Below are positions 12,998 to 55,200 of a DNA stretch of 64,000 bases, one piece after another. The notes below the pieces were generated by a model, which saw only the letters and a program-made list of their open reading frames with translations, did no database searches and was not told the origin of the DNA. Each line of letters begins with the position of its first letter. The stretch's first letter is position 1. A program made the position numbers and the translations under genes. This DNA comes from Patescibacteria group bacterium (GTDB taxonomy: Bacteria; Patescibacteriota; Patescibacteriia; Magasanikbacterales; GWA2-37-8): NCBI GenBank assembly GCA_041649475.1, contig JBAZNA010000001.1, forward strand, positions 124,267 to 188,266. Direction: 5' to 3'.

Positions 12998-13024
12998 TGC
13001 GGTCACGCCGTTTGGGAGGAAGCC

Positions 13025-13363: not shown

Positions 13364-13668
13364 ACCACGACACCGCTCTTGCTCTCGTAGTCGCATCGCT
13401 TCATCTCGTCGCTCCTCCTGAAGAGCCCTCTTTCGGTGTTCACACACCGACACCGCCCGTCTCTGACGGGCCGTCCCCTCTGACTCGGCCGCTAGCCAAT
13501 GCCGGTCGTGGCGCTTGCCCCGTCTGGTCACGGGCCTGCGCGCATCGGTCGCCTCGGGATCAGCCGAGGACCGGTGCTCAGAGGGGACGGTACCCCATCG
13601 GGGGGTGCTGCCGATCGCTCTTTCACGCACGCACCCCGGCGAGGAAGTCGGGGAAGGGAGGTGTACCC

Positions 13669-18441: not shown

Positions 18442-19458
18442 CTATTGGCATCTACCTTCAGAGGGGGGGACAGGTTGCCTCTCGGCCGCGAACGCCTTCT
18501 CCACAACCTCGCGCAGCACTAATCCCTTCCCGAACTCGCGAAGCGAGGTCACGATTGGAGCAGAATACCCATACGACACGCGCCTGTACGCGCTTGGTAC
18601 GGGATAGAGAATACGCACCGCCGGGTGCTTGGACCAGTAGAAGTACAACCCAAGACATTGGATCTTGGTGCAGATTGGTACCACCACGATTCGTGGTTGA
18701 ACTCGCCACAGTCGAAGAACACGTTCGCGATGCTGAGCGATGATATCGCGCAAGCGTGATGAGAAGTCGCGTGGTGAAAGGCTGGGCACAAGTTCGGCAA
18801 ACACGTTGTGATGTGCAAGCAGTGGACGATTGACTTCCAGCGCAGTCGTCACGTAGGTCATCGCTACTTCCGGTTGCGTCCAGGGGACGCCTATGGCGGC
18901 AACCGCTATTGCAGGGTCGAGTTCGAGCATGGTTGACAGTCCGCGATCCCCCTCGTAGCCCGCAAGTATGACGGCGAGCAGGGGGGACTGAGGGCTGCAA
19001 AGACCCTCGAATCCAAGCACAGCAACACATTGACGGTGACCAGTACCGGACTCGCCCTGAGCATGTGCCGTATGTCTGGAGCCGCCAACATAGACGACAT
19101 GGCTGATGCGGCCGTACAGCTGATGCAGCAATCGCAGTATGTGGAGCTTGGTCAGACAGGAAATATCAAGGACTATCTCCTTCGCGTCTCCAGCACAGGC
19201 CGCGACTGACCTGACAATCTGGATCTGTGACGAGATGTCACTGCGTATTACCTCATGCCGCACGCCCGCGTCAGCGACCATGAAATCGCATCGATTGACA
19301 TTCGCTATCAGTGCCGGTACCAGCTCCTCGGCTGTCTGATCATAGCGAATCGACAAGACGAGGTCGGGTCTGAAGTTCGACAGGCCGTACTCAAGTGCAG
19401 GCGCACACCGCTCCTCGAAGCTGTACGCATGCACCAAGACTCTAGATGCGTTCGTCAT
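18442..19458 (-). CDS. Hypothetical protein, co-translated partner of the SIR2-STAND gene
   Basis: 338 aa (ORF extends to 19548; start ATG 19458 with GAGG RBS); 17-nt overlap with the upstream gene; no recognised domain. Confidence 0.55.
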   Translation of the reverse strand: MTNASRVLVHAYSFEERCAPALEYGLSNFRPDLVLSIRYDQTAEELVPALIANVNRCDFMVADAGVRHEVIRSDISSQIQIVRSVAACAGDAKEIVLDISCLTKLHILRLLHQLYGRISHVVYVGGSRHTAHAQGESGTGHRQCVAVLGFEGLCSPQSPLLAVILAGYEGDRGLSTMLELDPAIAVAAIGVPWTQPEVAMTYVTTALEVNRPLLAHHNVFAELVPSLSPRDFSSRLRDIIAQHRERVLRLWRVQPRIVVVPICTKIQCLGLYFYWSKHPAVRILYPVPSAYRRVSYGYSAPIVTSLREFGKGLVLREVVEKAFAAERQPVPPSEGRCQ

Positions 19459-21832
19459 TGGGGACCTCAGACTCGCCAGCGAGAGGCAGCTGCATTTGAA
19501 GCGCGTCCGAGGGCAAGAGTGCCGCGAGGAACCCCTGCGGGTTCTCAACAGCCAGCTTCAAGTGCTTGGCCTGTAGTTCTCTCTGATGATGGTCCTCCAA
19601 GCTCAAATGGTACCGAGGGCACAGCAGGCGATGCAGCCGGTACGCGCTCATCGGAGTCAGCTGCGCTGGCGATAGGGACTGCCGGAGATTGGCACGCTGT
19701 AGTACTCCCAGCGTCAAGCAACCTTCAAGCAGTTCCCGAGTCGCCACGTCGAGATTTCCCGGGTCGGTGACGACGAAGCGGAGCGTCCTTTGAGATGTCT
19801 TCTCGGCGCGGCGCTTGCTGTACTCCGCCAGACTATCGAGCAAGATTCCTATGCGATGGCCGGCGGCGCCTCCCCTGCGAGTCTCAGACGAGAAGACGTG
19901 CGAATGGTCGCTGATGACGCGACTCTGAATACGAACGTCAATGGGAGACGACAGGCGCTTGGGCTCGACGTTGACGCTTCCTTGTGCGTCGGTGACGATG
20001 TCTTTGCACAGCTCGAGGAACTTCGAAATGTGACCAGATGAAAGCCGGACGATTTCGTTGAAGCCTGCGTACCCGCTCTCCGGGGGAGTCTCAAACGCAG
20101 GCAGAAGCTCCCTTATCGACGCAAGCGCAGAGCCGAAATTGGAGAGGCGTCGGTTGGCGATGTCCTCAACGTAATGGGGATATCGTTGGCTTGCGCCCCC
20201 GAAGAGCAGCTCATGGTCAAGGTCCGCAATTCGATAGTCTTCATTGGGCTGCAGGGTTCCGAGAGCGGCTCCCGACAACGCGGAGTATGCGCACGCAACC
20301 TTGACGTCGAACCTCCTTGCGGAGATCCAAGAAGCGATGGGATCGAACTGCTCATCGGAGCCCTCGAAGTCGTCGATCATCAGGACGAGGCGTTGGCGTG
20401 CAAGCGGTGGAACCTGTGCGGTGAGAAGAGATACCAGGTCAGAAACGGTGGTGGCCCCAGTACAAGCAGACGCATCAATCCTAGAGCGGTCAATCAGAGA
20501 ACGGGCCTTGCGGATCTCGAACGGTAGGTGTTGGAGAGGAACCTCAGCCGCATCGTCGGTCAAGCGGAGCAGGACGCAAATATCGCGCAGTGTTCGGGCT
20601 CCGGCGAGCAATGTCGGGAAACGATTGCACACCGCGCACAGGCACTCCATGATGCTCTCTGCTACGACTAGGTTCAGGTAATGCTGATAGAAGAGCCGCC
20701 ATTGGCCGGGGTTCTCTTCGGTCAGTCGTTGAGTAGCCATCCGGATATCGCGTCCGAGCTTCACGTAGACGGCCAGGGTAGCAAGTGCGGACGGGTCCGC
20801 CATCGTTTCGAGGTGCCCCCGCGTTGTGAGGGCTCGGAGAAGCATGGATTTCCCGGTGCCTCGCCCTCCGAGCAGGATTGTGTTGCCCGGCGACGTGACC
20901 GTGCCGGTCACGGTCGGGTGGTTAATGAACAAACTCACAACTAGGGAGTCATCTGGAATCTGGTCTGTTTTCCAAAACAAGAACGGATTGGTCGCCTCGG
21001 GCAGGGTCTCCTTCTCATGACGGGCCAAGGCGCGCCCCACTACGGGCTCGTTTGTTTGAAGTGCCTGCGTGTGACTTCGCAGCGCGCGGAAGAACTCACT
21101 CGCATTCATGGGTACTGGTACTACTTCGGCGAGCTCGCGAAATCGTCCTACATCCTCGAGATGAGGATGAGGATTGACGACGAAGAGCAGCGGTTTCTGA
21201 CCAGAGGCTTTCAGGGAGAGAAACCACCGTATGCAGTTGGCATCGCGGCCACGGAAGCCAACGAACACGAGGGGACCGCCTACGCAGAGCGTGACGATTC
21301 TCGGCAGTACGAGTTGCAGGTACTTGACGCATCTCTCCTCGATGTCAGAGTCGGTAAGACAATAGGGGCCCGCCCGGTTGATGCACCCATATATTTTGTA
21401 GAGCTTGCGACTAGTCGGTCGCTGGTCAGCCTGAGGAATATCCTGATCGCAGGTCACCACTTCTAGGTGCGTCGAGTCGTGTACCGTCTCTAGGAGCGTG
21501 TCATAGTTGGTCGTGACGATGTTGTCGATTCTCTCCAAGTCACGGAATAGCTCATAGGGCTGGCGACTCGCGGCCTTCTGGCTCTCCTTCAGTGTGTTCT
21601 GAACGAACGCGTCAAGTTCCACCCTCATGCGTCCCGTGCCGAGGAACCGCTCAGCGACCATCCCGAGGTCGTCCGTAGGGGGAAGCTCGAATCTCTTCGC
21701 GATTAGGCGAGCAAGTTGAGCCGCGCTCGGAAGGCCCGCGTCGATGCCGACGCCAGCACCGAGGAAGAACATCAGCCTGCCTTGCCTCAGGTAGTCGGCC
21801 AAGATGCGGACGGGATCGGGTACTTGGCTCAT
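19442..21832 (-). CDS. SIR2-like (SIR2_2/DHS-like NAD-binding) domain fused to STAND-type P-loop NTPase, Avs5-like architecture
   Basis: N-terminal FFLGAGVGIDAGLP...IVTTNYDTLLE...YKIYGC...FVGFRGRD (SIR2_2 motifs); central Walker A LLGGRGTGKSMLL and Walker B LVLMIDDFE; helical C-terminus; RBS AAGGGGG. Confidence 0.75.
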   Translation of the reverse strand: MSQVPDPVRILADYLRQGRLMFFLGAGVGIDAGLPSAAQLARLIAKRFELPPTDDLGMVAERFLGTGRMRVELDAFVQNTLKESQKAASRQPYELFRDLERIDNIVTTNYDTLLETVHDSTHLEVVTCDQDIPQADQRPTSRKLYKIYGCINRAGPYCLTDSDIEERCVKYLQLVLPRIVTLCVGGPLVFVGFRGRDANCIRWFLSLKASGQKPLLFVVNPHPHLEDVGRFRELAEVVPVPMNASEFFRALRSHTQALQTNEPVVGRALARHEKETLPEATNPFLFWKTDQIPDDSLVVSLFINHPTVTGTVTSPGNTILLGGRGTGKSMLLRALTTRGHLETMADPSALATLAVYVKLGRDIRMATQRLTEENPGQWRLFYQHYLNLVVAESIMECLCAVCNRFPTLLAGARTLRDICVLLRLTDDAAEVPLQHLPFEIRKARSLIDRSRIDASACTGATTVSDLVSLLTAQVPPLARQRLVLMIDDFEGSDEQFDPIASWISARRFDVKVACAYSALSGAALGTLQPNEDYRIADLDHELLFGGASQRYPHYVEDIANRRLSNFGSALASIRELLPAFETPPESGYAGFNEIVRLSSGHISKFLELCKDIVTDAQGSVNVEPKRLSSPIDVRIQSRVISDHSHVFSSETRRGGAAGHRIGILLDSLAEYSKRRAEKTSQRTLRFVVTDPGNLDVATRELLEGCLTLGVLQRANLRQSLSPAQLTPMSAYRLHRLLCPRYHLSLEDHHQRELQAKHLKLAVENPQGFLAALLPSDALQMQLPLAGESEVPNDERI

Positions 21833-21927
21833 GAAGCACCCCCTTACAGAGGCAGCCTATCATGGTCAAGGAGCCACGTCAGCTGCGTGAGGAAGTTGGC
21901 CGGATGCCGGCTTGGCCAGGCAGGATG

Positions 21928-21950
21928 CGCGTGTAATTCCAATTACATGC
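21928..21950. repeat. Recombinase-site-like element CGCGTGTAATTCCAATTACATGC (7-bp inverted arms); left partner of 23577..23599
   Basis: TGTAATT-CC-AATTACA internal palindrome; inverted partner downstream; third partial copy GTGATTCCAATTCC at 21997. Confidence 0.4.
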
Positions 21951-22019
21951 TATTATGTGATTGACACGGGCAAGCGAGCGCGTAAGCTCGGAGCCGTGAT
22001 TCCAATTCCTCCCCAGGAT

Positions 22020-23012
22020 ATGAATGAACTGGCTCGGTCCTTTGAGGGCTATCTGCGCGTCGAGCGCGGCCGTAGTCCGATGACCATCAAGCGCTATCTC
22101 TCGACCCTCACCAAGTTCGCCGCCTATATTGACGCGGAGAACGCGGACCTGGTTCTTGAGAAGGTGGTCAAGGCCGACCTGGTCAAGTTCCTGCGGCAGT
22201 CAGCCGGCGACGGTAATGAGCCGTCGCGGACCACCTGGAATCTGGCCCTCGCTTCGCTTCGCTCGTTCTACGAGTATCTGTTCAAGACGGAGGTCATCAA
22301 CGTGAATCCGGCCATGCGTATCGACCGGCTCAAGACCAATCTTCGAGAGCCGACCCCTCTGTCCCTGGACGAGTACCTTGCCCTGGTCGAAGCAGCGGAG
22401 CAGCTATCAGCCAAACCTGTGCGTTCGCGGAACGCGGTCATCATCCACGTCCTGTTTCACTCCTCGCTCCGCGTGCGTGAGGTCTGCTCGCTCAACCTCG
22501 ACCACCTGGACTTTGACAATCGATGGTTTTCAAACATCAGGACTAAGGGAAGCAAGTGGCTGTCGCTTCCCTTCAGCGACCTGGTATCGGCCGCCCTTGA
22601 GCGCTATCTCAACGATCGCACTCATCTGGCGGCCAACAAAAAAAACGGCGAGCCCGAGCTCGCCCTGTTTCTCTCCACCAGAGGCACCCGCCTCTCAATC
22701 CGCGCCATCGAGGAGATGGTCACAAACTGCGCCCAGCAAGCGGGGATCTCTCGTTCGGTCGGCCCCCACCTGGTCCGCCACTCTGGGGCCACCGGAATGT
22801 CCGAGTTGGGTACCCCGCTATCCGTTGTTCAGGAAATCCTCGGCCACGCGTCAGTATCGACGACCCGTCGCTATGTCCATGTCCGCGACGTTGCCAGGCG
22901 AAACGCGGTTGATTCCCTCGGGAAGGAGGTCACGAAGCGACTTCGTGACCGAACTCGCAGGCCGTCTCGTCGTTCCACCAGCACACCCGACGTCGGATTC
23001 AACGAGCAGTAG
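22020..23012 (+). CDS. Tyrosine recombinase, XerC/XerD-like
   Basis: N-terminal SAM-like domain (FEGYLRVERGRSPMT...), catalytic RVREV..., LVRHSGAT, HASVSTTRRYVHV (R-H-R-Y). Confidence 0.8.
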   Translation: MNELARSFEGYLRVERGRSPMTIKRYLSTLTKFAAYIDAENADLVLEKVVKADLVKFLRQSAGDGNEPSRTTWNLALASLRSFYEYLFKTEVINVNPAMRIDRLKTNLREPTPLSLDEYLALVEAAEQLSAKPVRSRNAVIIHVLFHSSLRVREVCSLNLDHLDFDNRWFSNIRTKGSKWLSLPFSDLVSAALERYLNDRTHLAANKKNGEPELALFLSTRGTRLSIRAIEEMVTNCAQQAGISRSVGPHLVRHSGATGMSELGTPLSVVQEILGHASVSTTRRYVHVRDVARRNAVDSLGKEVTKRLRDRTRRPSRRSTSTPDVGFNEQ

Positions 23013-29442: not shown

Positions 29443-29754
29443 ATGCTCGGCTGCATCCTGCTCATCGGCATCGTTGTCGGCGGCATCTTGATGATGCTTG
29501 GCTTCACCTCGGCTGCGAAGCGCCTGGGCGTCGTCATCCTCCTCCTCGCGCTCGCTGGCCCTCTCGTCATGGCCGTCGTCGACGGGCTTCACTGGGTCCG
29601 CCTCGATTGGCTCGCGTGGGCTGTCGTTCCGCTGCTTGTCCTCGGCTTCATCGTCGCCTTCGTGCAGTTCACCAACCGTCGGCGGGCGGTGAACAAGTGG
29701 CTCGGCGAGAAGAAGACCTCGGCCAAGACCCGGCTGGACAGCGATGACGCTTGA
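29443..29754 (+). CDS. Small membrane protein (3 TM), hypothetical
   Basis: 103 aa, hydrophobic helices, basic C-terminus. Confidence 0.45.
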   Translation: MLGCILLIGIVVGGILMMLGFTSAAKRLGVVILLLALAGPLVMAVVDGLHWVRLDWLAWAVVPLLVLGFIVAFVQFTNRRRAVNKWLGEKKTSAKTRLDSDDA

Positions 29755-31294
29755 TTTTTCCAACCTTCGTCTCATCTTCCGTCGGGGCGGGGCCACGAGT
29801 GAGCCAGTCGCTCCGGCGGAAGATGAGGTCGTCATCGGCTACACCGAGAACAAGCGACCCGTGACCCTCGGCAAGCCCTCGCAGGACCGAGGGCACCACC
29901 ACCTTGTCGTCGGGGCCACCGGGTGCCACAAGACGGTGCTCCTCTCTGCAGCCCTCGCCACTGAAGTCGCCCGAACGCCCAGAGAGGAACTCGGCTTGGT
30001 GCTCGTCGATCCTAAGGGGGATCTGCTGACCTTTCTCCATGCGCTGGCCGCCTGCGCCCCAGACCGGCTCGCCGACTGCGTTGTGATCGACCCCTTTGCC
30101 GTCAGCCCGTTCCCGTTCAACCTCACCAGGCTGGACCGCACCGGCGTCCCGCTCGAACTCCGCGCGCTTGAGCTTGCGCTCCTGTGCGCATCGCTCAGCA
30201 CGGAACAGGGCAGCCAAAAGAGCCTCGGCGCCGGCAGCCGCCAGATCGACGTCACGCAGAACGTCCTCGCGGCCGTTCTCGCTGCCGATCACGCCAAGGC
30301 GAATCCCACCTGGGCCGTCGACGCGCTCGTCGCTCCTCGGGGCAAAGGGTTGAAGCAGTTGGCTGAGTTTGCCGCGGGCGCGGGCCGGGCCAAGCAGTTC
30401 CTCGAGACCGCCTTCTTGAGTGACGAGCTCGCGGCGTCGTGCGCTGCGCGTCTCCGCCTGGCCTTCACGGCGTCGACCGCGATCGAGCGCATGATGGCTG
30501 CAGACACCTCAGTCCAGTTTGCGGACCTGACTGCACCGGGTCGCATCGTGCTCATCGACTGCAGCCGCCCGACCGCCGGCCTGAGCGCCCTGCAAATCTA
30601 CTGGGCCAGTCTGCTCACCCGGCTCCTTCTCTCCCACCTCATCCAAGCCAGGCCATGCCCGTCCCGAGGACACCACCACCTGAGAATCGTCGTTGACGAG
30701 GCGCCCATGGTACTTAACTCGACGATCGTGGCCGAGGCGGTCAACACCTTGGTCACCACGGGCCGTTCGCGCAACCTGTCCATCGTTCTCATCTGTCAGG
30801 GCACGAGCCAGATCCAGGACCCGGCCTTGCTCTCGATTCTCGTCGGCAACACCACGCGCATCGTGGGCCGATGTTGCGCCAAAGATGCCGACCTCCTTGC
30901 CCGCGATGTTGCGCCCGGCGCCGGCGTTGACGAAAGCGCGTCGTCGGTCAGGGCACGCGTCAGTTCGTCGATTTCGAATCTCGCCGACGGTGAGTTCTAT
31001 CGCTTCGGCCCGGGTCGAAGGGAGAGGTTCACCAACATCCAGGTGGACATGAACGCCTGGAAGACGGCGGCCCAGCGCCACGCCGCGGCGATCGGGGCGG
31101 CCAGGAACCGGCTGGCCATGCCGCCGGATTTCAGTCCTCGCGTCAGTCTCGCCGACGCCCTGGCCGAGCGTCGGGCTCAGCAGAAGAGGCAGGACAAGTC
31201 CTCGCCGAGCAAGTCGCGACCGCGCTCCGGCTCCGCTGCAACCAGCGACGAGTCGACGGGGCCTAAGCCGAAGCCGCGCTCGAGGTGGGGCTGA
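29744..31294 (+). CDS. FtsK/SpoIIIE-TraD-type DNA-translocase/coupling ATPase (copy 2), atypical Walker A
   Basis: HHLVVGATGCHKTVLL (H in place of the second conserved Gly), Walker B RIVVDEA; C-terminal Ser/Arg-rich tail. Confidence 0.6.
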   Translation: MTLDFSNLRLIFRRGGATSEPVAPAEDEVVIGYTENKRPVTLGKPSQDRGHHHLVVGATGCHKTVLLSAALATEVARTPREELGLVLVDPKGDLLTFLHALAACAPDRLADCVVIDPFAVSPFPFNLTRLDRTGVPLELRALELALLCASLSTEQGSQKSLGAGSRQIDVTQNVLAAVLAADHAKANPTWAVDALVAPRGKGLKQLAEFAAGAGRAKQFLETAFLSDELAASCAARLRLAFTASTAIERMMAADTSVQFADLTAPGRIVLIDCSRPTAGLSALQIYWASLLTRLLLSHLIQARPCPSRGHHHLRIVVDEAPMVLNSTIVAEAVNTLVTTGRSRNLSIVLICQGTSQIQDPALLSILVGNTTRIVGRCCAKDADLLARDVAPGAGVDESASSVRARVSSSISNLADGEFYRFGPGRRERFTNIQVDMNAWKTAAQRHAAAIGAARNRLAMPPDFSPRVSLADALAERRAQQKRQDKSSPSKSRPRSGSAATSDESTGPKPKPRSRWG

Positions 31295-31677
31295 TGTTGA
31301 AGACCGTCCTCGTCATGCCGCTCAAGCTGCTCTGGTGGACCATCAGGATCACCGCCCGGCTCGCACTCCTTCTGCTCGAGTCCGCCTTCTGGTTGTTCCA
31401 TGCGGTGCGGTGGCTCGTCACCATCGCCGACGACTTCTTCAAGGCGAAGCGCTTGATGCCTGCCGGGGAACTGCACTGTCCGCGCGGTCATCTGGTCCTG
31501 CCGGCTCGCGAGAAACAGGTGGCCAAGTGCGAGGCCTGCGGCTGGACGTTTGAGGCGTCTGGGTTCGACATCCTCGTGTGCAAGAACCCCGAGTGCGTCA
31601 GCCCTCAGACTTCGTACATCAACTGCCCCACCTGTGGTCTAAGCGTCCGCAATCCTTATAGGCTTGGTCGCCCATGA
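31285..31677 (+). CDS. Membrane-anchored zinc-ribbon protein, hypothetical
   Basis: N-terminal TM helices; CPRGH...CEACG...CKNPEC...CPTCG cysteine pairs. Confidence 0.4.
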   Translation: MGLMLKTVLVMPLKLLWWTIRITARLALLLLESAFWLFHAVRWLVTIADDFFKAKRLMPAGELHCPRGHLVLPAREKQVAKCEACGWTFEASGFDILVCKNPECVSPQTSYINCPTCGLSVRNPYRLGRP

Positions 31678-32546
31678 GCGTGCGTGCGGCCAAGCGGTCG
31701 AGGACGGTCCGGTGCAAGGGTAAGCACGGCCTCGAGATCACCGAGCGCGACACCGCTATTCTCATCCTCCTCGGCAACGTCCGGTTCGCCACTCCGAACC
31801 AGATCAGTCGCGAGCTGTTCTCGAGCCTCGACCGCTGTCGCCGACGCCTTCGACAACTCTTCGACGCCGGCTACATCGTCATCACGATCTCCTCCTCGCG
31901 CCACCCGAACCTCGTCTCGCTCACGAAGGCCGGGCTTGACGTCGCCAGCCAGGCTGCGCCTCACGTCGCAGACCGGCTCAGACTGGCTGGTGCCATTAGG
32001 CTCGCCGGCATCGAGCACCACTTGCTGTGCACCGACATTCGGCTCTTTGCGGTCGCTCTCGGCGAGCTTCGGCATGCGCCCCTGGCTCGCTGGGCCAACG
32101 CAGGCGGCGACCTCGTCCGCGAGCTCGATCTTGCTCGCTTCCACATCCAGCCCGACGCTGTCGCCCAGTACACCATCAATCCCTCCGGAGACGCGATCCA
32201 CATCGCCATCGAAGCGGACTGCGCCACGCAGTCGGTCTCCTCGGTCCTCGTCGGCAAGCTTCGGCGCTACGCTCAGGCTGCCGCGCAGACGAGTCTCGAC
32301 GCTCTGTGGTTGGTGACCTCCGGCGGGGAGCAGCGGCGGGCGAACATCGACGCATTGTTGAACCAACAGGGACTCGAGCAGTTCGTGCGGGTGCTGTCGC
32401 GCGCGCACGTCATCGCCCGACCGGTTCGGGAGCTGCCGGCGCGCGGGGGGAGTAGGGCCGTTCAAGGCCCTATTACGACCTCCTTCCTCGACTCTGATTC
32501 TAGTTGCACCTCGCGGTGTTCAAACACCGAGGGTCGCAGTCGGTAG
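31674..32546 (+). CDS. Replication-relaxation family protein (copy 2)
   Basis: ITERDTAILILLGNVRFATPNQISREL signature. Confidence 0.7.
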   Translation: MSVRAAKRSRTVRCKGKHGLEITERDTAILILLGNVRFATPNQISRELFSSLDRCRRRLRQLFDAGYIVITISSSRHPNLVSLTKAGLDVASQAAPHVADRLRLAGAIRLAGIEHHLLCTDIRLFAVALGELRHAPLARWANAGGDLVRELDLARFHIQPDAVAQYTINPSGDAIHIAIEADCATQSVSSVLVGKLRRYAQAAAQTSLDALWLVTSGGEQRRANIDALLNQQGLEQFVRVLSRAHVIARPVRELPARGGSRAVQGPITTSFLDSDSSCTSRCSNTEGRSR

Positions 32547-32751
32547 GCGGGCCGATGGGCGGGTTCGATAGGACGGGCGGACACGAACACCGACGGTCGG
32601 CCTACTCGCCGCGCGCCCGGGAACCCCAGCTCGTCGATCTTCCGCTCATCATCGACATCATCCGTGAGGTTCTGCGTGAGGAGCTCAGCGCGTGTGCTAT
32701 GCTCGCAGCGACTGAACTCCCGTCGCGCCGAAGAGAGGAGGGTGAACAATC

Positions 32752-33963
32752 ATGGCGCGACCCAAGGAAGGACCACGCGTCCGAGGTCCGTACCGCTACG
32801 ACGGAGGACGACGATGGCGAGTCGACGTTTTCAAGGGCAGAGGCGAGGAGGATCCTGAGCTCCACTACTACGAGACGGAAAAGGAAGCTCGGCAGGTAGT
32901 CCAGTCGCTGAGAAGAGCGATGGGTCAGCAGCAGGACCGCACCATCGACGACGCCTTGAAGGAGTACGAGCGGCACATGCGGGAGAAGGGGAACAAGCCG
33001 AAGTCGATCACGGAGACGACCCGCAGACTCCGACTCTTCTTCCCGGACCTCGAGATGCCGCTCGCCGCGTTCAACTCCAGCCGCGCTCAGACGTACTACG
33101 ACGAGCTCTGCCAGCGACCAACGATGCAGCCGAAGCGGCAACAGGTCGACGGAGACGAGGTGGCGTCGCTGCGTGAACAGAAGCTCTCGTGGCGCGACAT
33201 CTGTGCCAAGCTCAAGTGCGGTCGGTCGGCTGCGATGCGCGCGCTAGAGCAGCGAGGCCAGCCCGAGCCCGAGTCCCGCAAGCTGTCAGTCGACAGCCAT
33301 CGCAACATGCTCGCCGAGGCCAAGTCGTTCACCCGCTGGTGCACGGAGGACAAGCGCTGGCTCAAGGCGAACCCCCTCGAGGCCGTCAAGGGCAAGGGCA
33401 AGCGCAAGCACGGCAAGCTGCAGCTGCGCATCGACGAGACGCGCAAGTGGGTCGCCAAGGCGCTCGAGTTGGCGGGGCAGGGCGAGGAGGGCGCGATCGC
33501 GGCCCTGCTCACGCTGTACCTCAACCTGCGCTGCAGCGAAGTGGTGACCCGAGTCGCGCGCGATGTCGACGACAACGGCCGGGTGCTCTGGGTGCCGGAC
33601 AGCAAGACCGAGAAGGGCAAGCGTACGCAGGAAGTCCCGCCGGAGTTGCGGCCGTTCCTCTTGCAGCTCACGTCGGGCAAGACCGCCGATGCCAAGCTGT
33701 TCGGCTGTGCCTCGCGCGACTGGCCGCGTCATTGGGTGCAGCGGATCTGCGCCTTGGCGGGAGTGCCCGTCGTCTGCGCTCACGGCATGCGCGGCACTCA
33801 CTCGAGCATCGCGCACGCCTTCGGCTTCACGAGCCGCGCCGTCGCCGACGCGATGGGGCATGAGTCCGAGAAGACCACGATCGAGAGCTACACGGACCCG
33901 TCGGTCGTGGCGAACGCGCAGCAGAAGCGCATGCTGCAGGTCCTGAATGGGGGCCGAGCTTGA
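32752..33963 (+). CDS. Tyrosine integrase (phage-integrase family)
   Basis: C-terminal catalytic block: RCSEV (R), HGMRGTHSS (H-x-x-R), GHESEKTTIESYT (Y). Confidence 0.8.
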   Translation: MARPKEGPRVRGPYRYDGGRRWRVDVFKGRGEEDPELHYYETEKEARQVVQSLRRAMGQQQDRTIDDALKEYERHMREKGNKPKSITETTRRLRLFFPDLEMPLAAFNSSRAQTYYDELCQRPTMQPKRQQVDGDEVASLREQKLSWRDICAKLKCGRSAAMRALEQRGQPEPESRKLSVDSHRNMLAEAKSFTRWCTEDKRWLKANPLEAVKGKGKRKHGKLQLRIDETRKWVAKALELAGQGEEGAIAALLTLYLNLRCSEVVTRVARDVDDNGRVLWVPDSKTEKGKRTQEVPPELRPFLLQLTSGKTADAKLFGCASRDWPRHWVQRICALAGVPVVCAHGMRGTHSSIAHAFGFTSRAVADAMGHESEKTTIESYTDPSVVANAQQKRMLQVLNGGRA

Positions 33964-34005
33964 CAACGAAACGTCTCGTTTCGTTGTCAGCGGGCCCGGA
34001 CAACA

Positions 34006-34039
34006 AGAAGGGGTTTCGCATCTCTGCGAAACCCCTTCT
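34006..34039. terminator. Perfect 15-bp palindromic hairpin (AGAAGGGGTTTCGCA-TCTC-TGCGAAACCCCTTCT), a bidirectional terminator-like structure
   Basis: Between the integrase stop and the tRNA-fragment 3' end. Confidence 0.5.
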
Positions 34040-34046
34040 GTTCCGG

Positions 34047-34080
34047 TGGAGCTGAACGGGATCGAACCGTCGGCCTCCTG
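34047..34080 (-). other. tRNA 3'-end fragment (T-arm plus acceptor, ...GACGGTTCGATCCCGTTCAGCTCCA), att-core-like and not a complete tRNA
   Basis: Canonical TTCGATC T-loop with 5-bp stem and 7-nt acceptor 3' strand; no matching 5' acceptor, D or anticodon arms upstream; flanked by repeated TTTCGTTGTCAGC motifs (33978 and 34130) and palindrome 33961-33989. Confidence 0.55.
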
Positions 34081-34352
34081 AATGCCATTCGTCGGGAAAG
34101 CAGGGGGCTACGAGTAGTTGTCAGGTGGTTTCGTTGTCAGCCGCGACGGGAGTTCAGTCATTCTCGTGGCTTATAGCTGACAAGGATTCGTTCGGTGACC
34201 AATCCTAGCATGGGGTTCAGCAGTTGTGGTGATCGGGTTGTCGTCGTGCAACACCGCGGACTGTCACGCGGAGACGCGATCTCCGTCGGGAGCATGGTCT
34301 TCACCTGCGGTGGGACTTGAAACCTGAACGGATGATCTGTAGCTTGGCCGGC

Positions 34353-35359: not shown

Positions 35360-37648
35360 CTACCCGAGCTGCCCGTAGATCAAGGTCCGCTTGACGAAGG
35401 TTTCGAGCTCAATCGGGTTCACCACCGGCGGCGCTCCTGGCCCGTTGTGGTGGAACTGCTTCGAGTAGTCGTTGATGTCCGTGAGCTCCTGCACACGCGG
35501 TTGCAGACCCACGAGGAGAGTGCCGGCGCCCGCGTTGCGGATTCTGCCGATGAAGTCGCCCAGGTAGTCCGTCGCCGGAAACGCGTCCGGGAACCGGCCC
35601 CGCAGCTGGCCCTCCAGGTACGGCCGGATCGCCCGGGCAATGGTCAGAAGGTCCCCACCAGTAGAGAGTCCCTCGTCCAGGTAGCGGCGCAGGAGGAAGA
35701 AGTCGCGGTAGGCCGCCTCCAGGCACGCCTTGAGGATGTCCCACTCCTTGATGGCGTAGGTCGCGCCGTCGCGTGTGACCTGCAGGGACTTGATCGTGGC
35801 CTTGTCGATGTTGGTGTCGTAGATGTGCTTCAGGAAGTCCGCGTCATGCGACAGGACCACCACCTGCTTGGCCTGACTGCCCAGGCGGCAAATCTCCTGC
35901 TGGGTGCAGGCTGTACGGAACACGTCGAGGCTCGAGAGCGGGTCATCGAGGACGATGACCTTCTGCGCCAGCAACGGGTCCTGCTCGAGCCGCGCCAAAA
36001 AGAATGCCAGCGCCAGGGTGCTCTTGTCGCCAGAGCTTAGGGCCGTCCGGAAGCACGGCGTGCCGCGGGGTGTCTTCTCGTCCCCTAGGTTGACGGGGGT
36101 GTTGTTGATGGAAATTTGGTAGGTGGAGCTGGCCCGGCCGCCCTGGAAGCTCGGCTTGGTACCGGTGAGGGTAAAGTTGGCGCCGAACTTCTGCAGCAGG
36201 CGGTTGATCGCCTGCTCGTACTTCTGGAGGATCGAGCCGGCGATGGTCTCCAGCTGGCTACGCGTCTTCTTCTTCTCGTCCTCGTAGTTCTTCTTCTGCT
36301 GGCGCCCGGCGGTCAGCTTGGCGCACAGGTCAGTGGCCTCGGGCTGCTGCCGGATCTGCATGTTGCGGAACCGGCGCAGCTCCCGCTCCAGCACGTCCTC
36401 GCCGGTGGCCGCGGCCTGCTTCTTGATGTCGGCGATCTGCTCGTTCGCGCGCGCGATCTGCTCGTTGACCTTGCGCACGGCGGCCGCCGCCTCCTCGAAG
36501 TCGTGGAGGGCGGCCTCCAGGTGCTCATCCTTGGACGGGGGCTCCGACGGATTGGCCAGCCGGCGCTTGAGGGCGTCGCGCAGGACCTCGCGGACGTGCC
36601 GCCAGGCATGCTCAAGCGCGTCAGTGGAACAGGTGGCGTAGCTCAGGTCGGCCAAATCTGCCCAGCCGCGGATCAGGCCGTCGTTGGCCAGCACTCGCTT
36701 CTGGACGCCGTGGAGCGCGTCGTCGCCGAGCGTCTGGTCCAGGGCGTTGATGGCTCGCTCGATGAGGACGACGTGGTCGCGGTACTTGGTCGAGAAGTAG
36801 TCGCGCAGGAGGGCGACCAGCTCGACCTTCTCGGTGGACTGGGTGCAGAACGGACAGGCGTGGTCCTCCTTCAAGTACTCGAGGCCTTGCCGCAACCACT
36901 GCTCGCCGCGACCGTCGAGGTCGTCCTGGATGTGCTGACGGACCAGCTTGTCGCCGCCCTCCGTCTTGCGCTCGACCGCGACCTGGAGGATGTCGATGGA
37001 CTTGGCCGGAACCTCAGGCACCGTGAGCGGGTCCAGCTCGCGCCGAGCGACGATCTCCCTCGACTTGCGGACTGCGCTCAGGCGAGTGGTCCGCTCGCTG
37101 ATCTTCTCCTCGAGCCCGTTCTCGGGGACGAGCGTGAGGAACTCGTCGACGCTGAACGGCGCCTGGATGATTCCCCGCAGCTTCGTCTCCAGCTCGGTTA
37201 TGTCGTGCGCCGCGGTCCGGCTCTTGGTGTCGATCTCGTCCACCTGGTGCGCGAGCGCGACCGCAGCCGCGCCCACCACGACCTCGTAGAGGTGCTTGCG
37301 GTGCTCGGACTCGACGCGGTCGCCGGTGTAGACGTTCTCGTTGATGAAGGTCGAGTCGAATATCTCCAGGTCGGGCATGGTCTGCGACCACTGGCCGCCC
37401 TGGAAGCTGGCGTTGCCCGCCGCCAGCCGGATCTCGACCGCCGGCGAGCCGTTCACGCCGAGCGTAGCGCGCTCCTGGACGTAGGCCGGGTCCCCGGTCT
37501 GCAGGGAGCGCAGGATGCCGGCGAGAGTGGTCTTCCCGTGCCCGTTGTCGCCGTAGATGAGGGTCAGCCGCTTGAACTGAACGTCTGCCTTGGCTGCCAG
37601 TTTGACGAACCGACCGACGTTCTCCACCTTGATGATTTTCTCTATCAT
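35360..37648 (-). CDS. AAA_13-family ATPase with long coiled-coil, RloC/PrrC-like (putative anticodon-nuclease or abortive-infection protein), divergent from hsdM
   Basis: N-terminal KIIKVENVGRFVK...LIYGDNGHGKTTL (AAA_13), extensive coiled-coil, conserved C-terminal domain; genomic linkage to the type I R-M. Confidence 0.6.
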   Translation of the reverse strand: MIEKIIKVENVGRFVKLAAKADVQFKRLTLIYGDNGHGKTTLAGILRSLQTGDPAYVQERATLGVNGSPAVEIRLAAGNASFQGGQWSQTMPDLEIFDSTFINENVYTGDRVESEHRKHLYEVVVGAAAVALAHQVDEIDTKSRTAAHDITELETKLRGIIQAPFSVDEFLTLVPENGLEEKISERTTRLSAVRKSREIVARRELDPLTVPEVPAKSIDILQVAVERKTEGGDKLVRQHIQDDLDGRGEQWLRQGLEYLKEDHACPFCTQSTEKVELVALLRDYFSTKYRDHVVLIERAINALDQTLGDDALHGVQKRVLANDGLIRGWADLADLSYATCSTDALEHAWRHVREVLRDALKRRLANPSEPPSKDEHLEAALHDFEEAAAAVRKVNEQIARANEQIADIKKQAAATGEDVLERELRRFRNMQIRQQPEATDLCAKLTAGRQQKKNYEDEKKKTRSQLETIAGSILQKYEQAINRLLQKFGANFTLTGTKPSFQGGRASSTYQISINNTPVNLGDEKTPRGTPCFRTALSSGDKSTLALAFFLARLEQDPLLAQKVIVLDDPLSSLDVFRTACTQQEICRLGSQAKQVVVLSHDADFLKHIYDTNIDKATIKSLQVTRDGATYAIKEWDILKACLEAAYRDFFLLRRYLDEGLSTGGDLLTIARAIRPYLEGQLRGRFPDAFPATDYLGDFIGRIRNAGAGTLLVGLQPRVQELTDINDYSKQFHHNGPGAPPVVNPIELETFVKRTLIYGQLG

Positions 37649-37756: not shown

Positions 37757-39568
37757 ATGTCAACCACAACCTCATCATTCGGCGATCGCGTCCAGCTCCT
37801 GCGCAAGCGCCTGAACCTCAGCCAGGAGCAGCTCGGGACGCGGCTGGACGTCTCCTTCGCAACCATCAGCCGCTGGGAGTCGGGCAAGTCGCAACCGCAG
37901 AAAGCCCAGCTCGCGACCTTCGACCGTCTCTGGGAGGAGACCGGCCTAGACCACGACGAAGCCGCTACGACCGCGACAACAGGCCAGCGTCGCCGTCGCG
38001 GCGTTCATCGCAGCTCCGTGCTCAGCAACAAAAGCATGGAGCAGATGCTGTGGGACGCCGCCTGCTCGATCCGAGGCGAGAAAGACGCCCCCAAGTTCAA
38101 GGATTACCTTCTGCCGCTTCTTTTCATCAAGCGGCTATCCGATGTCTTCGACGACGAGGTCGAGCGCCTGACACAGACCTACGGCGACCGCGACACGGCC
38201 CTCACCGTGCTGGAAGCCGATCACGAGCTCGTCCGCTTCTACCTCCCGCCCGAGGCGCGCTGGGCCGTCGTCAGCGGACGCGAGCCCTTCGACTGGCCTG
38301 CCACCCTCCGGCCGAAATCACTCGGCGAGCAACTCACCACCACCATCCGCGCCGTCGTGAAGCACAACCCCGAACTCGCCGGCGTCATCGACATCGTCGA
38401 CTACAACGAGACGCGCAACGGAGAGCGCGAGATCAGCGACGCCGCTCTTAAGGGCGTCGTTGAGACGTTCTCCGATCCCCGCTACCGCCTCGGCCTCCAC
38501 AACGTCGAGCCCGACTTCCTCGGCCGCTGCTACGAGTACCTCCTCCGGAAGTTCGCCGAGGGCCAAGGCCAGAGCGCGGGCGAATTCTTCACGCCGCGTG
38601 AGGTTGGTTTTCTCATGGCGGAGATCATGCGGCCCCGCCCGGGCGAGGAGTGCTACGACTATGCCTGCGGCTCATTCGGCTTGCTCATTAAGCTCCAGCT
38701 CGTTTGCCGTCGTCTGAACCCCCTCAGCAAGGTGCCACTACAGCTCTACGGCCAGGAGCTCACCGGCTCCAGCTTCGCCATCGCCTGCATGAACCGCATC
38801 ATCCACGACATGGAGGGCCAGGTCCTCCGTGGCGACTCGATGCGCAACCCGAAGTTCAGGGATGCTGACGGTCACCTCAAGAAGTTCGACGTCGTGGTCT
38901 CAAATCCAATGTGGAACCAGCCGTTCGACCCCGAGGTGTACGAGAACGATCAGTTTGGCCGCTTCGTTGAGCACGGAGGCATCACCACCAGCAAGGCCGA
39001 CTGGGCCTGGCTCCAGCACACGGTTACGTCATTGAAGGACAACGGACGCGCCGCTGTGGTCCTCGATACCGGCGCAGTCACACGCGGCAGCGGCAGCAAG
39101 AACGAGGACAAGGAACGCAACATCCGCAAGTGGTTCGTCGAGCACGACCTGATTGACGGTGTGATCCTCCTCCCTGACAACCTCTTCTACAACACCATGG
39201 CCGCCGGGGTGATCCTTATCCTTTCCAAACGGAAGCCCAAAGAGCGACGTGGAAAGATCGTCCTTGTCAACGCTAGCAACGAGTTCACCAAGGGCACACC
39301 GAAGAACTACCTCACCGACGAGGCCGTTCAGAAGATCGGGGCTGCGTTCGTGGCAGGGAAGCCCGTTGAGGGCTTCGTGGCAGTCATTACCAACGAGGAA
39401 GCGCTGGCAGACGACTACAACCTATCGCCGTCGCGTTTTGTGCAATTCAACGGCACACGTGGCACAAATCGACCCTTGCCAGAGATTGTGGCCGACCTAG
39501 ACGCCATCGATGCCGAGCGAACGCGAATCGACAAGGAACTGCGGCGGGTTCTGGAGCAGCTACTATGA
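37757..39568 (+). CDS. hsdM: Type I restriction-modification N6-adenine DNA methyltransferase HsdM, with an N-terminal XRE-type HTH extension
   Basis: First about 65 aa, [31 protein letters not shown] (HTH); then the HsdM N-domain ([11 protein letters not shown]...[15 protein letters not shown]), SAM motifs, NPMWNQPF catalytic motif. Confidence 0.9.
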
Positions 39569-40857
39569 CCAACGCTGCTCCCAAGGGATGGACAGAAGTA
39601 CCACTCGGAGAGATCGCCACCTGCCAGGGTGGATCAGCATTCTCTCCCGCGTTGCAGGGGCGCACTGCCGGTGACATTCCCTTCTTCAAAGTGTCCGACA
39701 TGAACCTGCCAGGAAACGGTTGGTTCATGCGTCGGGCAAACAACTACGTAAGCCTCTCCGACACGTCCCGTATCCTCGGGGCAGAGAAGCCATCTGGCTC
39801 TGTCATATTTCCCAAAGTAGGCGCTGCCGTGCATACGAATAAGAAGCGCCAGCTCACACAGGATTCCTTCGTAGACAACAACGTCATGGCCGTATGGTCA
39901 AAGGACCCCGAGCGCTGTCGTCCAGGATTCCTTTACTTGTATTTTCTAACGGTTGATCTCTCGACGATGTCCAACCCCGGACCCCTGCCGTCAATAAACA
40001 ACAGCAAGGTCTATGAGCAGACTATCCGTCTCCCTACGTCACTTGAGCAGGACCGCATCTGCGCCACGATGCTCACCATTAGACGCGCGATCGAGGCCGA
40101 GGAGAAGGCGATCACACTTATCCGCGAAGTGAAACAGGCCGCGCTGCTGCGCCTCTTCAGTCAGGGACTGCGCGGTGAGTCACTGCGTGACACCGAGATC
40201 GGTCTTGTGCCAGCCAGCTGGGATATTCAGCCCTTCGCCGAGCTTCGCGAGTTCTTGCAGTACGGGACCTCCGTGAAGTGCGACTATGCGCTAGAAGGGA
40301 ATCCTGTCCTGCGCATCCCGAACGTGGTTGACGGTCGAGTTGATTACCGTGACCTGAAGAGATGTCGCCTCGACAGCGATACGGTCGCCTCTCTGTTGCT
40401 CGAACCAGGCGACATTCTGTTCATTCGGACGAACGGAGTGCGCGAACGGGTGGGCACCTGCGCAGTCTACGACGGCGTTCCGGAACAGGCGCTATTCGCC
40501 TCCTACCTCATTCGGGCCCGACCTAAGCGCGGTGTTCTCAACCCCCAATACCTCCAGTACTTCACGGCAACACGCACAGGCGCATCCCAGCTCGCCGGAC
40601 GATCCTCACCGGCTGCAGACGGCAAGTTCAATATCAACACGAAGTCCATCGATGCCGTGCTAGTCCCGATCCCGTCGGAGGCCGAGCAGAACGACATCGT
40701 CGGCGTGCTCGAGACGATCGATGCTGCCGCAACCTCCTATGAACGCCGGCGAGCGACCCTCTCGGAGCTATTTGCCACGCTTCTCGAGAAGCTCATGACC
40801 GCCGACCTTCGCGTGGACCACCTCAACATCGACACTTCGCTAATGACGGCAGCCTAA
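39565..40857 (+). CDS. hsdS: Type I R-M specificity subunit HsdS (two target-recognition domains)
   Basis: ATGA overlap with hsdM; duplicated TRD architecture with conserved central and C-terminal helices. Confidence 0.85.
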
Positions 40858-40859
40858 CT

Positions 40860-43772
<2,913 letters not shown>

Positions 43773-46862: not shown

Positions 46863-47786
46863 ATGAGCACGACCAGCAAGCAACGGCGAGATCAGAAAAA
46901 GAAACGAGCCGCAAAGCGAAGCAATCGGCGTCGAGCCGAGGCGAGCGCCGCCCGGTCAGCGCGTCACACTACTGCGACCCTGTTCTCCGAACGGAAGAGA
47001 TACGTGGACCGATGGCGAGCCACCTCCGACCATCTGTTGGCCGGAGGCCATTATGCATGGATGGCGAGCTTCGTGCGGGGTTTCCCGCGCGTCCTGGAGA
47101 TCGGTACGGGTGTTGGCAATGGGACGATTGTGCTGCTTCGAGACGGCCATGCCGTCGTCTCGATTGATGAGAATCCGGATTGTCTCGCTGCCGCTATGGG
47201 GCGTATCCAACACGCAGGGTTCCCATGTGTTTGTTTGACCCGAGGAACGGTGCACCAGGAGATCCACGGGCATCGGATTGAATATGATGAAGTCGATACC
47301 GCGCCGGCCTCCGAGGGCGCGACCCTGATCGAAGCTGATCTCGTGAACGATCCACGCTGGGTATCGTGGGTCAAGGCACTACTCCCCTTTGACGCTGTCG
47401 TCTGTTGGCTGGCCGGGAGCCACAGAGCACGACCGCTCAACGTCGCCTTGACAGGGATCGGGAGTCCGCAGGAATTGCGTCTGTCCGTACAGAACCGCGC
47501 GTACACACTAGCAGACGAAGTTCTGCGCCCAGGTGGAGTGCTCCATGTGGTTGATCGCCGTGAGCCAATGGCAAACCATGAGCTTCTTCGATCGGACGCG
47601 CTTCGAGCTCATCGAGAGCAGGCTTCACCGACGAATCTTGTGATTGCGGATGATGCTATCGAGGAAAGACTGTATGAGGAACCGCGCGACGGCGGCGTGG
47701 AGATGATCGTATCTGCAGGCATATCAGGTCGCATGCCAGACATGACCCAGCTAGCGTTGACCTCGATAATCAGCAGAAGGATGTAG
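46863..47786 (+). CDS. Class I SAM-dependent methyltransferase with basic N-terminal tail
   Basis: VLEIGTGVGNGTIVL (motif I), acidic residue after beta2 (VVSIDENPD). Confidence 0.55.
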   Translation: MSTTSKQRRDQKKKRAAKRSNRRRAEASAARSARHTTATLFSERKRYVDRWRATSDHLLAGGHYAWMASFVRGFPRVLEIGTGVGNGTIVLLRDGHAVVSIDENPDCLAAAMGRIQHAGFPCVCLTRGTVHQEIHGHRIEYDEVDTAPASEGATLIEADLVNDPRWVSWVKALLPFDAVVCWLAGSHRARPLNVALTGIGSPQELRLSVQNRAYTLADEVLRPGGVLHVVDRREPMANHELLRSDALRAHREQASPTNLVIADDAIEERLYEEPRDGGVEMIVSAGISGRMPDMTQLALTSIISRRM

Positions 47787-55023: not shown

Positions 55024-55134
55024 GGGTTCTAACATAGTCCATCCACGCCCGCATCGTGAGACAACGTCCAACCGCTCGTCACCGCGCCGCAATGCAAGGA
55101 CCACCGCAGCTGCAGAGCGGTGGTCTTTCGTTTG
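55024..55134 (+). ncRNA. Candidate structured RNA / attenuator element, copy B
   Basis: GGGTTCTAA...GCCCGCATCGTGAGACA...GACCACCGC-N9-GCGGTGGTC-TTTCGTTTG; 36 nt after the upstream stop, 66 nt before the PP2C start. Confidence 0.4.
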
Positions 55135-55200
55135 TCCAGGCGCGCCATTCAGATGCCGCGCCGGACCTCGCGGTCGGATCGCGTAGGCGTGTCGGGCGAG

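Follow-up and report, generated by a model that had tools for sequence, protein, structure and literature searches.

Here, we describe a tyrosine integrase gene (int) and the DNA directly downstream of it in a 64,000-nucleotide stretch of a Patescibacteria genome (GenBank assembly GCA_041649475.1, contig JBAZNA010000001.1, positions 124,267 to 188,266 of the forward strand; referred to as the window here). Patescibacteria is the annotated source of the 963-kb NCBI contig that carries P0001, the NCBI version of this integrase. Our favored reading, to which we give a probability of roughly 0.8, is that positions 32695-34190 hold a complete, unrecombined module of integrase gene and element-borne attachment site (attP), that the core of this attP was copied from a tRNA-Ala(GGC) gene of Myxococcota, and that the module is a passenger in a genomic island of the Patescibacteria host. 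The site reads as an attP of the anticodon-centered class and not as an attL or attR, because both flanks of the core are of element type, and an attL or attR would have element sequence on one side only. The parts of the module are, in order along the window, as follows.

32695-32703, plus strand: extended -10-like element TGCTATGCT, putative int promoter, read from the sequence.
32710-32727, plus strand: copy 1 of an inverted repeat called M2 here, GACTGAACTCCCGTCGCG, located after the -10-like element and before the int ribosome-binding site (Shine-Dalgarno).
32752-33963, plus strand: tyrosine integrase, 403 amino acids (aa); PF00589 at 29.0 bits (cutoff, 27.1), phrog_1 at E = 1.3e-31.
33961-33989, no strand assigned: P' arm, two inverted candidate arm-type sites, TGACAACGAAACG tct CGTTTCGTTGTCA; 13-nt arms, 100% complementary, with a 3-nt spacer.
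34006-34039, no strand assigned: perfect 15-bp hairpin with a 4-nt loop, folding far better than shuffled sequence (z = -6.8 on one strand and -7.4 on the other).
34047-34090, minus strand: attP core, a 44-nt copy of tRNA-Ala(GGC) positions 30-73.
34128-34141, plus strand: P arm, proximal candidate arm-type site GTTTCGTTGTCAGC, ∼50 nt from the core.
34142-34159, minus strand: the P-arm copy of M2 (copy 2), immediately adjacent to the proximal arm site.
34176-34186, minus strand: P arm, distal inverted candidate arm-type site, degenerate, GCTGACAAGGA (minus strand, TCCTTGTCAGC), ∼93 nt from the core.

The core comprises the last 2 nt of the 5' anticodon stem, the anticodon loop ATGGCAT (34082-34088), the variable region, the T arm, the 3' strand of the acceptor stem, and A73; it is followed by CCG at 34044-34046 and lies 84 bp from the int stop codon. 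Because it is identical to tRNA-Ala(GGC) of Myxococcota at 44 of 44 positions and to the host's own tRNA-Ala(TGC) (4336-4409) at 22 of 44, the fragment is a piece of tRNA-Ala, of another isoacceptor and another phylum than the host's. A first-pass annotation of the window had described a 34-nt minus-strand T-arm/acceptor fragment that does not match tRNA-Ala. The fragment is real (the 25-mer quoted in that annotation is found at 34047-34071 and nowhere else in the window, the chance expectation being 0), but its true length is 44 nt, and the mismatch holds for the host's tRNA-Ala(TGC) and not for tRNA-Ala overall. Given that the host tRNA compared, the tRNA-Ala(TGC) in the window, mismatches the core, Int probably has no target in this host genome.

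The absence of a 5' tRNA half, from which the site had been judged uninserted, was borne out: ARAGORN finds no tRNA or transfer-messenger RNA (tmRNA) there, a scan of the whole window with Rfam gives no match at the core site, and the 102 nt from 34044 to 34145 fold no better than shuffled sequences (z = 0.18). Both arms lie contiguously around the core. On the grounds of these three negative results, a hidden full tRNA or a mini tRNA-like RNA at 34044-34145 was rejected. Two findings had been named that would undo the tRNA interpretation, a chance motif and a foldable full tRNA; neither held, given the 44/44 tRNA homolog and the ARAGORN result.

The sequences around the core are equally well defined, and the features at 33961-34141 are not chance occurrences. 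The palindrome with 13-bp arms that the first-pass annotation had listed at 33961-33989 is present with fully complementary arms, overlaps the TGA stop codon of int (33961-33963), and as RNA folds at -20.8 kcal/mol (z = -4.45). The repeated motif, too, is there: GTTTCGTTGTCAGC occurs exactly at 33978-33991 and 34128-34141, and its 12-mer core GTTTCGTTGTCA occurs three times in the 64 kb, all within 33961-34139, against 0.24 occurrences expected. The distal arm copy at 34176-34186 and the M2 inverted repeat are additional to what had been listed. An extra GTTGTCA at 34117-34123 is specific to the window. Candidate arm-type repeats that are distinct from the core sequence thus lie on both sides of the core, and Int would be expected to bind them at GTTTCGTTGTCA.

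The perfect 15-bp hairpin is likewise present, at 34006-34039; its earlier inclusion in the attP architecture needs revision, since it is most likely a terminator that travels with the tRNA 3' end on the minus strand and not an arm site. On that strand it is followed by TTGTTGT, and it is 94% identical to the sequence after an intact tRNA-Ala(GGC) gene in the Polyangia metagenome-assembled genome (MAG) SMAG_U4743 (locus L063). It may also end int transcripts. In SMAG_U4743, the intact tRNA-Ala(GGC) gene (L063, 1077-1170) is accompanied by a separate 47-nt fragment (L098, 2097-2178), and each of the two sites is followed by a hairpin 93 to 94% identical to that of the window and by a common TTCAGGGGGYCGACGG block, with no integrase nearby. 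These two sites are the closest natural context of core plus terminator and are probably relics of a related element.

The taxonomic range of the core was read from a 35-mer scan of 185,579 species, each represented by a single genome. This yielded 93 loci: 51 intact tRNA-Ala(GGC) genes, 19 intact tRNA-Ala(CGC) genes, 19 loci with the fragment only, and 4 cut by contig ends. Almost all of them belong to Myxococcales, Polyangia, Myxococcota, or “Deltaproteobacteria,” a few belong to Thermodesulfobacteriota/Deferrimicrobium and other bins, and none of the 93 is labeled Patescibacteria. The cognate hosts are therefore Myxococcota/Polyangia plus a few other “delta-proteobacterial” lineages and not the actinobacteria to which the first-pass annotation had looked for the cognate tRNA. 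Its proposal that the module was aimed at the tRNA of another host and is carried inside a larger element agrees with the foreign core and with the position of the module inside a 57-kb island.

That annotation had also suggested looking for related modules integrated at the cognate tRNA, and such modules exist. Among the fetched loci, integrases 40 to 56% identical to that of the window (tblastn) are convergent to intact tRNA-Ala(GGC/CGC) genes, ∼100 to 130 bp from their 3' ends, in more than 12 loci (L080, L007, L056, L093, L058, L036, L033, L079, L035, L088, and L003 to L006). In L003, for instance, the intact tRNA-Ala(CGC) gene that comes after a 46% identical integrase (P0026) has the same 3' 35 nt as the window. 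Truncated integrase copies lie near tRNA-Ala in L082, L071, L069, and L021. In 18 fragment-only loci with a GGC or CGC loop, the block of identity is 43 to 47 nt long and starts at the anticodon loop; the blocks of the window (44 nt) and of its closest relative, L001 (45 nt), fall within this range of displaced fragments. Pairs of an intact tRNA gene and a displaced fragment were found on one contig or in one MAG for L069/L029, L071/L059, L079/L084, L080/L076, and L058/L052.

The arms were compared in MAGs or contigs that contain both junctions, taking the P arm as the sequence upstream of the displaced fragment and the P' arm as the sequence from the tRNA end to the int stop codon. The integrated relatives each have a distinct version of a motif that contains AACGA (such as CGGAACGATTGCGG, GAAACGATT, and GGGGAATGATTG), located at about -48 from the core, as an inverted copy at -95 to -110, and as a tandem or palindromic pair at +37 to +90. 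In the window, this arrangement recurs contiguously around a single core, with the P' palindrome, the core, the proximal site at -50, and the inverted degenerate copy at -93. The attP architecture that had been proposed, a copy of a tRNA 3' end flanked by arm sites, is thus the one found in the integrated relatives.

The only close relative is L001 (also recovered as L100), an 83% identical module with the same contiguous layout on a 17-kb contig of GCA_041648665.1 (17,374 bp; JBAZOP010000063.1/Ga0265297_10006285). DNA homology to the window is 83% over 32661-34162 and ends at 34162. The arm sites and M2 are conserved and the spacer beside the core is not: the P' palindrome is the same save for changes in spacer and flank, the proximal arm site is kept, in contrast to the diverged ∼38 nt that separate it from the core, and the distal position in L001 has CGTTGTCAA. 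Beyond int-attP, the backbone of L001 is unrelated to that of the window or only ∼25% identical. We therefore rejected the idea that L001 is the same element elsewhere, as only int-attP is common to the two. The int-attP cassette is the conserved unit, and because it is common to the window and L001 on otherwise unrelated backbones, modular exchange of this cassette is likely. Searches of other collections found no described element that carries this integrase: Int matches INPHARED phage proteins at 20 to 25% identity only and has no match among PLSDB plasmids, no closely related DNA was found in plasmids, the P-arm pattern has 0 matches in viral contigs, and the P arm is matched by none of the 93 genome loci except L001.

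By its catalytic residues, profile match, and predicted fold, the integrase belongs to the tyrosine recombinase/phage integrase superfamily. In an alignment of 13 sequences (the window protein and 12 homologs), R260, K285, H344, R347, H370, and Y380 are invariant; the active site thus reads as intact, and the enzyme may be active. The N-terminal GPY...WRV segment is conserved in the same alignment. P0001, the NCBI-annotated version, has 347 aa and starts at M57, which would omit the N-terminal domain; the 403-aa start is supported by the conservation of the N-terminal segment and by a GGAGG motif 10 nt upstream. An AlphaFold (AF2) model (mean predicted local distance difference test score, 82.7) has strands at 9-16, 21-27, and 36-40 and a helix at 43-62, followed by a helical core-binding part and then the catalytic domain. 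The predicted three strands plus helix resemble the arrangement of arm-binding domains. The top solved structures found with Foldseek are Tn1549 Int (E = 2.5e-7) and full-length lambda Int (E = 9.5e-7). As for the expression of int, a simple sigma-70 scan gives no promoter upstream of the gene, and a TGnTAnnnT element equivalent to the putative promoter TGCTATGCT is found at the same position upstream of int in L001, L080, L058, L033, L036, and L003.

An insertion of ∼45 aa at Int residues ∼125 to 172 (33120-33270) is present in the window protein and in its 83% relative P0002 and absent from the other 11 homologs aligned; P0013 has a shorter one there. The ∼45-aa insertion is modeled as three short helices, has a weak HTH_23 match, and may be an extra DNA-binding module.

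The M2 repeat links the two ends of the module. Its copies form a perfect 18-nt inverted repeat whose halves are 1.4 kb apart, and L001 retains both, at 9791-9807 and 11230-11246 (17 nt, 94% complementary). Distant family members have other sequences at both places, yet the copies match each other within a lineage: GACTGACATCCTGTCG upstream of int in L080 and GACTGACATCCTGCCG in the P arm of L076, TGCTGACGAATCGCCG in L058 and TGCTGACGAATCTGCCG in L052, and GCTGACGTTTCTC in both L056 and L059. As the two copies covary across the family, this argues for a function of M2. By analogy with known systems, M2 is most likely a shared operator, bound by Int or a directionality factor, that would repress int and join the intasome; we favor this over the alternative that the two copies pair on a read-through int transcript, in which case int expression would depend on the integrity of attP. 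Control of both int and the intasome by one factor is known from P4 Int/Vis, P2 Cox, 186 Apl, and KplE1 IntS/TorI, and lambda has sib retroregulation. As in those systems, a sequence element (here M2) is common to the int promoter/5' region and an attP arm, which would fit a single protein that controls int and takes part in assembling the intasome, and its inverted orientation on a read-through transcript is as expected if int senses an intact attP (compare lambda sib). Unlike in those systems, where the promoter overlaps or abuts the attachment site, the M2 copies are 1.4 kb apart.

Assuming a lambda-type mechanism of an anticodon-centered integrase that targets tRNA genes (tDNAs), the module would work as follows. 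The N-terminal domain of Int would bind the GTTTCGTTGTCA arm sites (two inverted ones on the int side and one proximal plus one distal inverted on the other), while the core-binding and catalytic domains would engage the DNA surrounding the anticodon loop. In or beside this 7-nt loop, strands would be exchanged with a chromosomal tRNA-Ala(GGC) gene. After integration, the 44-nt copy of the element and its hairpin terminator would replace the native 3' part, leaving the tRNA intact, and the native 3' fragment would be displaced to the far end of the element. In the window copy, this reaction has not occurred, since both arms still flank one core. The module would then be the integration apparatus of a mobilizable element of Myxococcota type, now a passenger in a serine-recombinase island; its attP would be intact because the insertion of the island at the host tRNA-Ala(TGC) did not involve it.

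The relevant genes around the module are the following.

4285-6072, minus strand: large serine recombinase with Resolvase and Recombinase domains, at the left edge of the outer island.
29744-31294, plus strand: FtsK/TraD-like coupling ATPase (Pfam; NCBIfam VirD4-like, weak).
31294-31677, plus strand: small Zn-ribbon protein (Pfam).
31674-32546, plus strand: Replic_Relax protein (PF13814, 55.9 bits; cutoff, 25.3).

A block with a G+C content (GC) of 0.62 extends from ∼4410 to 61415 (∼57 kb), with a sharp step from the left host flank, which has a GC of 0.44 and encodes an SPFH protein, an O-antigen ligase, and a malic enzyme; the right host flank contains a tRNA-Arg gene and purA. Both island-host junctions fall within the window. 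At the left one, the serine recombinase gene of the island abuts the host tRNA-Ala(TGC) gene at 4336-4409, with its open reading frame (ORF) running antisense into the tRNA, and the island presumably entered at this tRNA gene via its own large serine recombinase. The int-attP module lies mid-island and ends the gene row of coupling ATPase, Zn-ribbon protein, and Replic_Relax protein. The ATPase matches TraG-D_C and FtsK_SpoIIIE under the Pfam cutoffs. Judging from these genes, int-attP appears to belong to a small nonphage mobilizable backbone carried inside the island. None of the ten proteins neighboring int matches a phage structural or packaging family in PHROGs; besides int, only the Replic_Relax protein has matches there, and these are weak (E = 3.5e-5 and 8.8e-5): one is a replication family, the other has no assigned function. 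By its gene content, the element carrying int does not appear to be a prophage. A search for direct repeats that delimit the inner element within the island gave nothing convincing.

Two sister islands occur in the same sample, abutting tRNA-Val(CAC) and tRNA-Arg(TCG). The first has a recombinase 71% identical to that of the window and 87 to 93% nucleotide identity to window positions 9.2 to 14.6 kb. In the second (L108), the serine recombinase is 47% identical, and a backbone trio within 10 kb of it is 39%, 36%, and 47% identical to the coupling ATPase, Zn-ribbon protein, and Replic_Relax protein of the window; an HTH_17 gene and a tyrosine integrase of a different family follow. A homolog search with the 93-aa N terminus of this other integrase found nothing.

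Several observations weigh against our reading of a complete Myxococcota-type module. No close relative (>60% identity) was found in the integrated state, and the P arm was never seen at an attR; the only other copy, L001, is likewise unrecombined on its 17-kb contig. A metagenome scan for an integrated close relative gave only L100 (the L001 contig), a 2-kb contig that ends past the int stop codon, and distant matches. The N-terminal domain of Int matched no Pfam arm-binding family, and no excisionase gene adjoining int was recognized with Pfam, while the relatives L002 and L108 do have an HTH_17 gene beside their integrase. The encoded 3' end is CCG instead of CCA. Finally, the module would have to have come into the island by a route other than its own attP.

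Among the alternatives, we consider it unlikely that the island is a composite element built for two hosts, with the serine recombinase serving the tRNA genes of Patescibacteria and Int serving tRNA-Ala(GGC) of a Myxococcota cell, possibly the host of the episymbiont, so that the intact attP would be a working alternative landing system and not baggage. Such a design would account for the intact-looking active site of Int and the complete attP, for high-GC modules that are unameliorated in a host with a GC of 0.44, and for Int relatives in Myxococcota from the same ENA (European Nucleotide Archive) assembly series; the pairing of a serine and a tyrosine recombinase also recurs in L108, in the same sample and with a homologous backbone. 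However, the tyrosine integrase of L108 is of a different family, L001 shares the int-attP cassette but otherwise has an unrelated backbone, a sign of modular shuffling more than of a fixed design, and no evidence ties this Patescibacterium physically to a Myxococcota host. It is correspondingly doubtful that the 57-kb island and its sisters are vehicles moving between an ultrasmall Patescibacteria episymbiont and a Myxococcota host, with the attP core as a pointer to the host of the symbiont; if they were, M2 would let the element sense the integrity of attP, by analogy with lambda sib.

The unrecombined state of the site bears on a second alternative, in which it is a decayed attL or attR left by an element that once sat in an island-borne tRNA-Ala(GGC) gene whose 5' half was later deleted. 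Degraded junctions do exist in Myxococcota, as the truncated integrases beside tRNA-Ala in L069, L071, and L021 show, and the window has no 5' half. Deletion would not, however, create what lies on the 5' side of the core, namely, P-arm features at the correct distances (the arm site at -50, M2, and the inverted site at -93), and the same P arm is conserved in L001 in a different context, so that we regard a decayed junction as very improbable.

An assembly or binning artefact, in which high-GC myxobacterial DNA was misjoined to a Patescibacteria contig, is suggested by the sharp GC step from 0.44 to 0.62 and by the fact that all Int relatives are in high-GC organisms. We give this hardly any credence, as several lines of evidence indicate that the island is genuine. 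Besides the 963-kb NCBI contig, a short-read ENA assembly contains the left junction in contig L106, 100% identical to window positions 1-14583, and a second contig, L107 (101 kb), with the exact integrase ORF and a matching order of flanking genes; by its size, L107 has the length to run from ∼14.5 kb to well past the right junction. Two more islands of this family lie against different tRNA genes of the host, and the serine-recombinase ORF crosses the junction into the tRNA, as it does in the homolog P0124.

The idea that the tRNA-like piece is the 3' end of a tmRNA (ssrA) or a chance T-loop motif, which arose from the acceptor ending of G3:U70 type that tmRNA and tRNA-Ala share (CAGCTCCA) and from a weak local Rfam match (15.9 bits against a gathering score of 47; E = 2e-4; 322 model positions skipped), was dropped as refuted, since identity extends through the GGC anticodon loop at 44 of 44 positions to real tRNA-Ala(GGC) genes, the intact tRNA-Ala of L003 has the same 35 nt, and the genome scan holds 70 intact tRNA-Ala genes.

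With the reading as a Myxococcota-type int-attP module preferred, its likeness to known systems can be set out. Anticodon-centered tDNA-targeting tyrosine integrase/attP systems (the “A” subsite) are said to have been described by Williams in 2002 for islands, integrative conjugative or mobilizable elements (ICEs/IMEs), and temperate phages. The module resembles them in that a tRNA copy running from the anticodon loop to the 3' end lies beside int, a pattern also seen in the integrated relatives. It differs in its target, tRNA-Ala(GGC/CGC) of Myxococcota, and in being an unrecombined copy inside another island in a different phylum.

Lambda Int is heterobivalent, recognizing arm-type and core-type sites, as seen in structures 1z1b and 1z1g, and lambda attP spans ∼240 bp. 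The window attP spans ∼230 bp and likewise has repeated arm sites on both sides of the core, and the modeled Int has the same domain plan as lambda Int, in which a small N-terminal beta-sheet plus helix precedes a helical core-binding part and a catalytic part that holds the R-K-H-R-H-Y residues. The two proteins are, however, only ∼12% identical, the arm motif and its spacing are specific to the window family, and the window subfamily has in its core-binding region the ∼45-aa insertion, which resembles a helix-turn-helix (HTH). No excisionase (Xis) gene or integration host factor (IHF) sites were identified in the window module. Actinomycete integrative conjugative elements (AICEs) such as pSAM2 and other IMEs combine int with a replication/relaxation protein and an FtsK/TraD-like ATPase. 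Like them, the putatively mobilizable backbone around the window module has a compact nonphage gene set, a terminal integrase by a tRNA-derived attP, a Replic_Relax protein, and a single coupling ATPase, with no type IV secretion system genes. Unlike AICEs, its lineage is associated with Myxococcota and not with actinobacteria; its ATPase matches fall under the curated cutoffs.

A tDNA-targeting island restores the gene that it splits, and a displaced fragment marks its far end; in the Islander collection, 2083 of 3919 islands are anticodon centered, which makes this the commonest class (PMC4383910).

Several further features of the island and its flanks were recorded. Serine recombinases sit directly at the 3' end of a tRNA gene in the window (4285-6072, minus strand), in L104 (8251-9922), and in L108 (10001-11658); the targets are Ala-TGC, Val-CAC, and Arg-TCG, respectively, and in each case the gene lies at the edge of a high-GC island with its ORF antisense into the tRNA. 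Toward its C terminus, the window recombinase reads ...LLKRGDAENR followed by GPMGTRTPDPRV..., and P0124 ends in a similar antisense-T-arm peptide. A 14-nt direct repeat, CGAGTTCGGAAAGG, occurs at 4572-4585, within the serine recombinase gene (encoding LSEL), and at 61402-61415, the exact right GC transition, where it continues on the minus strand as LSELDNIYGPVLASIERLRAAPELSLTHS*. This right-end copy and its continuation could provide an alternative C terminus when the DNA is circular, or they could be what is left of a second recombinase gene. In the right flank, GC is ∼0.60 in 62001-63000, most of host purA (62058-63413), compared with 0.44 in the left flank and 0.33 to 0.44 in the adjoining intergenic and ORF region. 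Two candidates were set aside: a 22-nt inverted match (86% complementary) between the left junction and 46997-47018 was judged to be due to chance, and an 83-nt tRNA-Trp called by ARAGORN at 60212-60294 is almost certainly a false positive, as an rve-family transposase ORF (59032-60357, minus strand) encloses it and Rfam gives no tRNA match.

The island also carries a second mobilization set closer to the serine recombinase, consisting of a Replic_Relax protein (9716-10654), a coupling protein (11561-12997), a primase, and an SprT-like protein. A third island recombinase, at 21912-23012, is XerC/D-like (206 bits to TIGR02224, under the equivalog cutoff) and sits between a SIR2 defense gene and the inner element. 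Defense-type cargo is rich (19442-21832 and 35360-37648, both on the minus strand, 37757-43772, 48510-51337, and 55120-58637) and includes a fusion of SIR2 with an ORC/Cdc6-like ATPase. To the right of int-attP lie an AAA_13 ATPase, a complete type I restriction-modification system (HsdM with an N-terminal HTH, HsdS, and HsdR), methyltransferases including an N6_N4 methylase, next after which comes an AAA_21/AAA_15 ATPase, and a PP2C phosphatase together with two Ser/Thr kinases. Direct repeats within the island were found at 24356-24457/24958-25059 (102 nt, 81% identity, 602 bp apart) and at 45381-45420/55024-55063 (40 nt, 83% identity, 9.6 kb apart); the 40-nt pair may delimit an insertion or consist of repeated promoters.

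The module is, as far as its defining features can be read from sequence, of a kind already known, an anticodon-centered tDNA integrase/attP of predicted lambda-type heterobivalent design, and in itself it is textbook biology; its interest comes mainly from the cross-phylum context. What appears to be new is an integrase family without relatives in phage and plasmid collections and with a predicted specificity for tRNA-Ala(GGC/CGC) in Myxococcota, the covarying promoter/P-arm element M2, and an intact copy of the module in a Patescibacteria genome. This previously undescribed family, with its well-resolved attP layout, could serve as a tool for site-specific integration in myxobacteria. The covariation of M2 suggests that int expression and the state of the attachment site are linked by regulation. 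The tRNA-targeting serine integrases of bacteria of the candidate phyla radiation (CPR) seem to merit separate study. As a tag of provenance, the attP core marks unameliorated DNA of myxobacterial type within a 963-kb Patescibacteria genome, and it provides a concrete, testable example of mobile elements that cross phyla into CPR bacteria via serine-recombinase islands at host tRNA genes.

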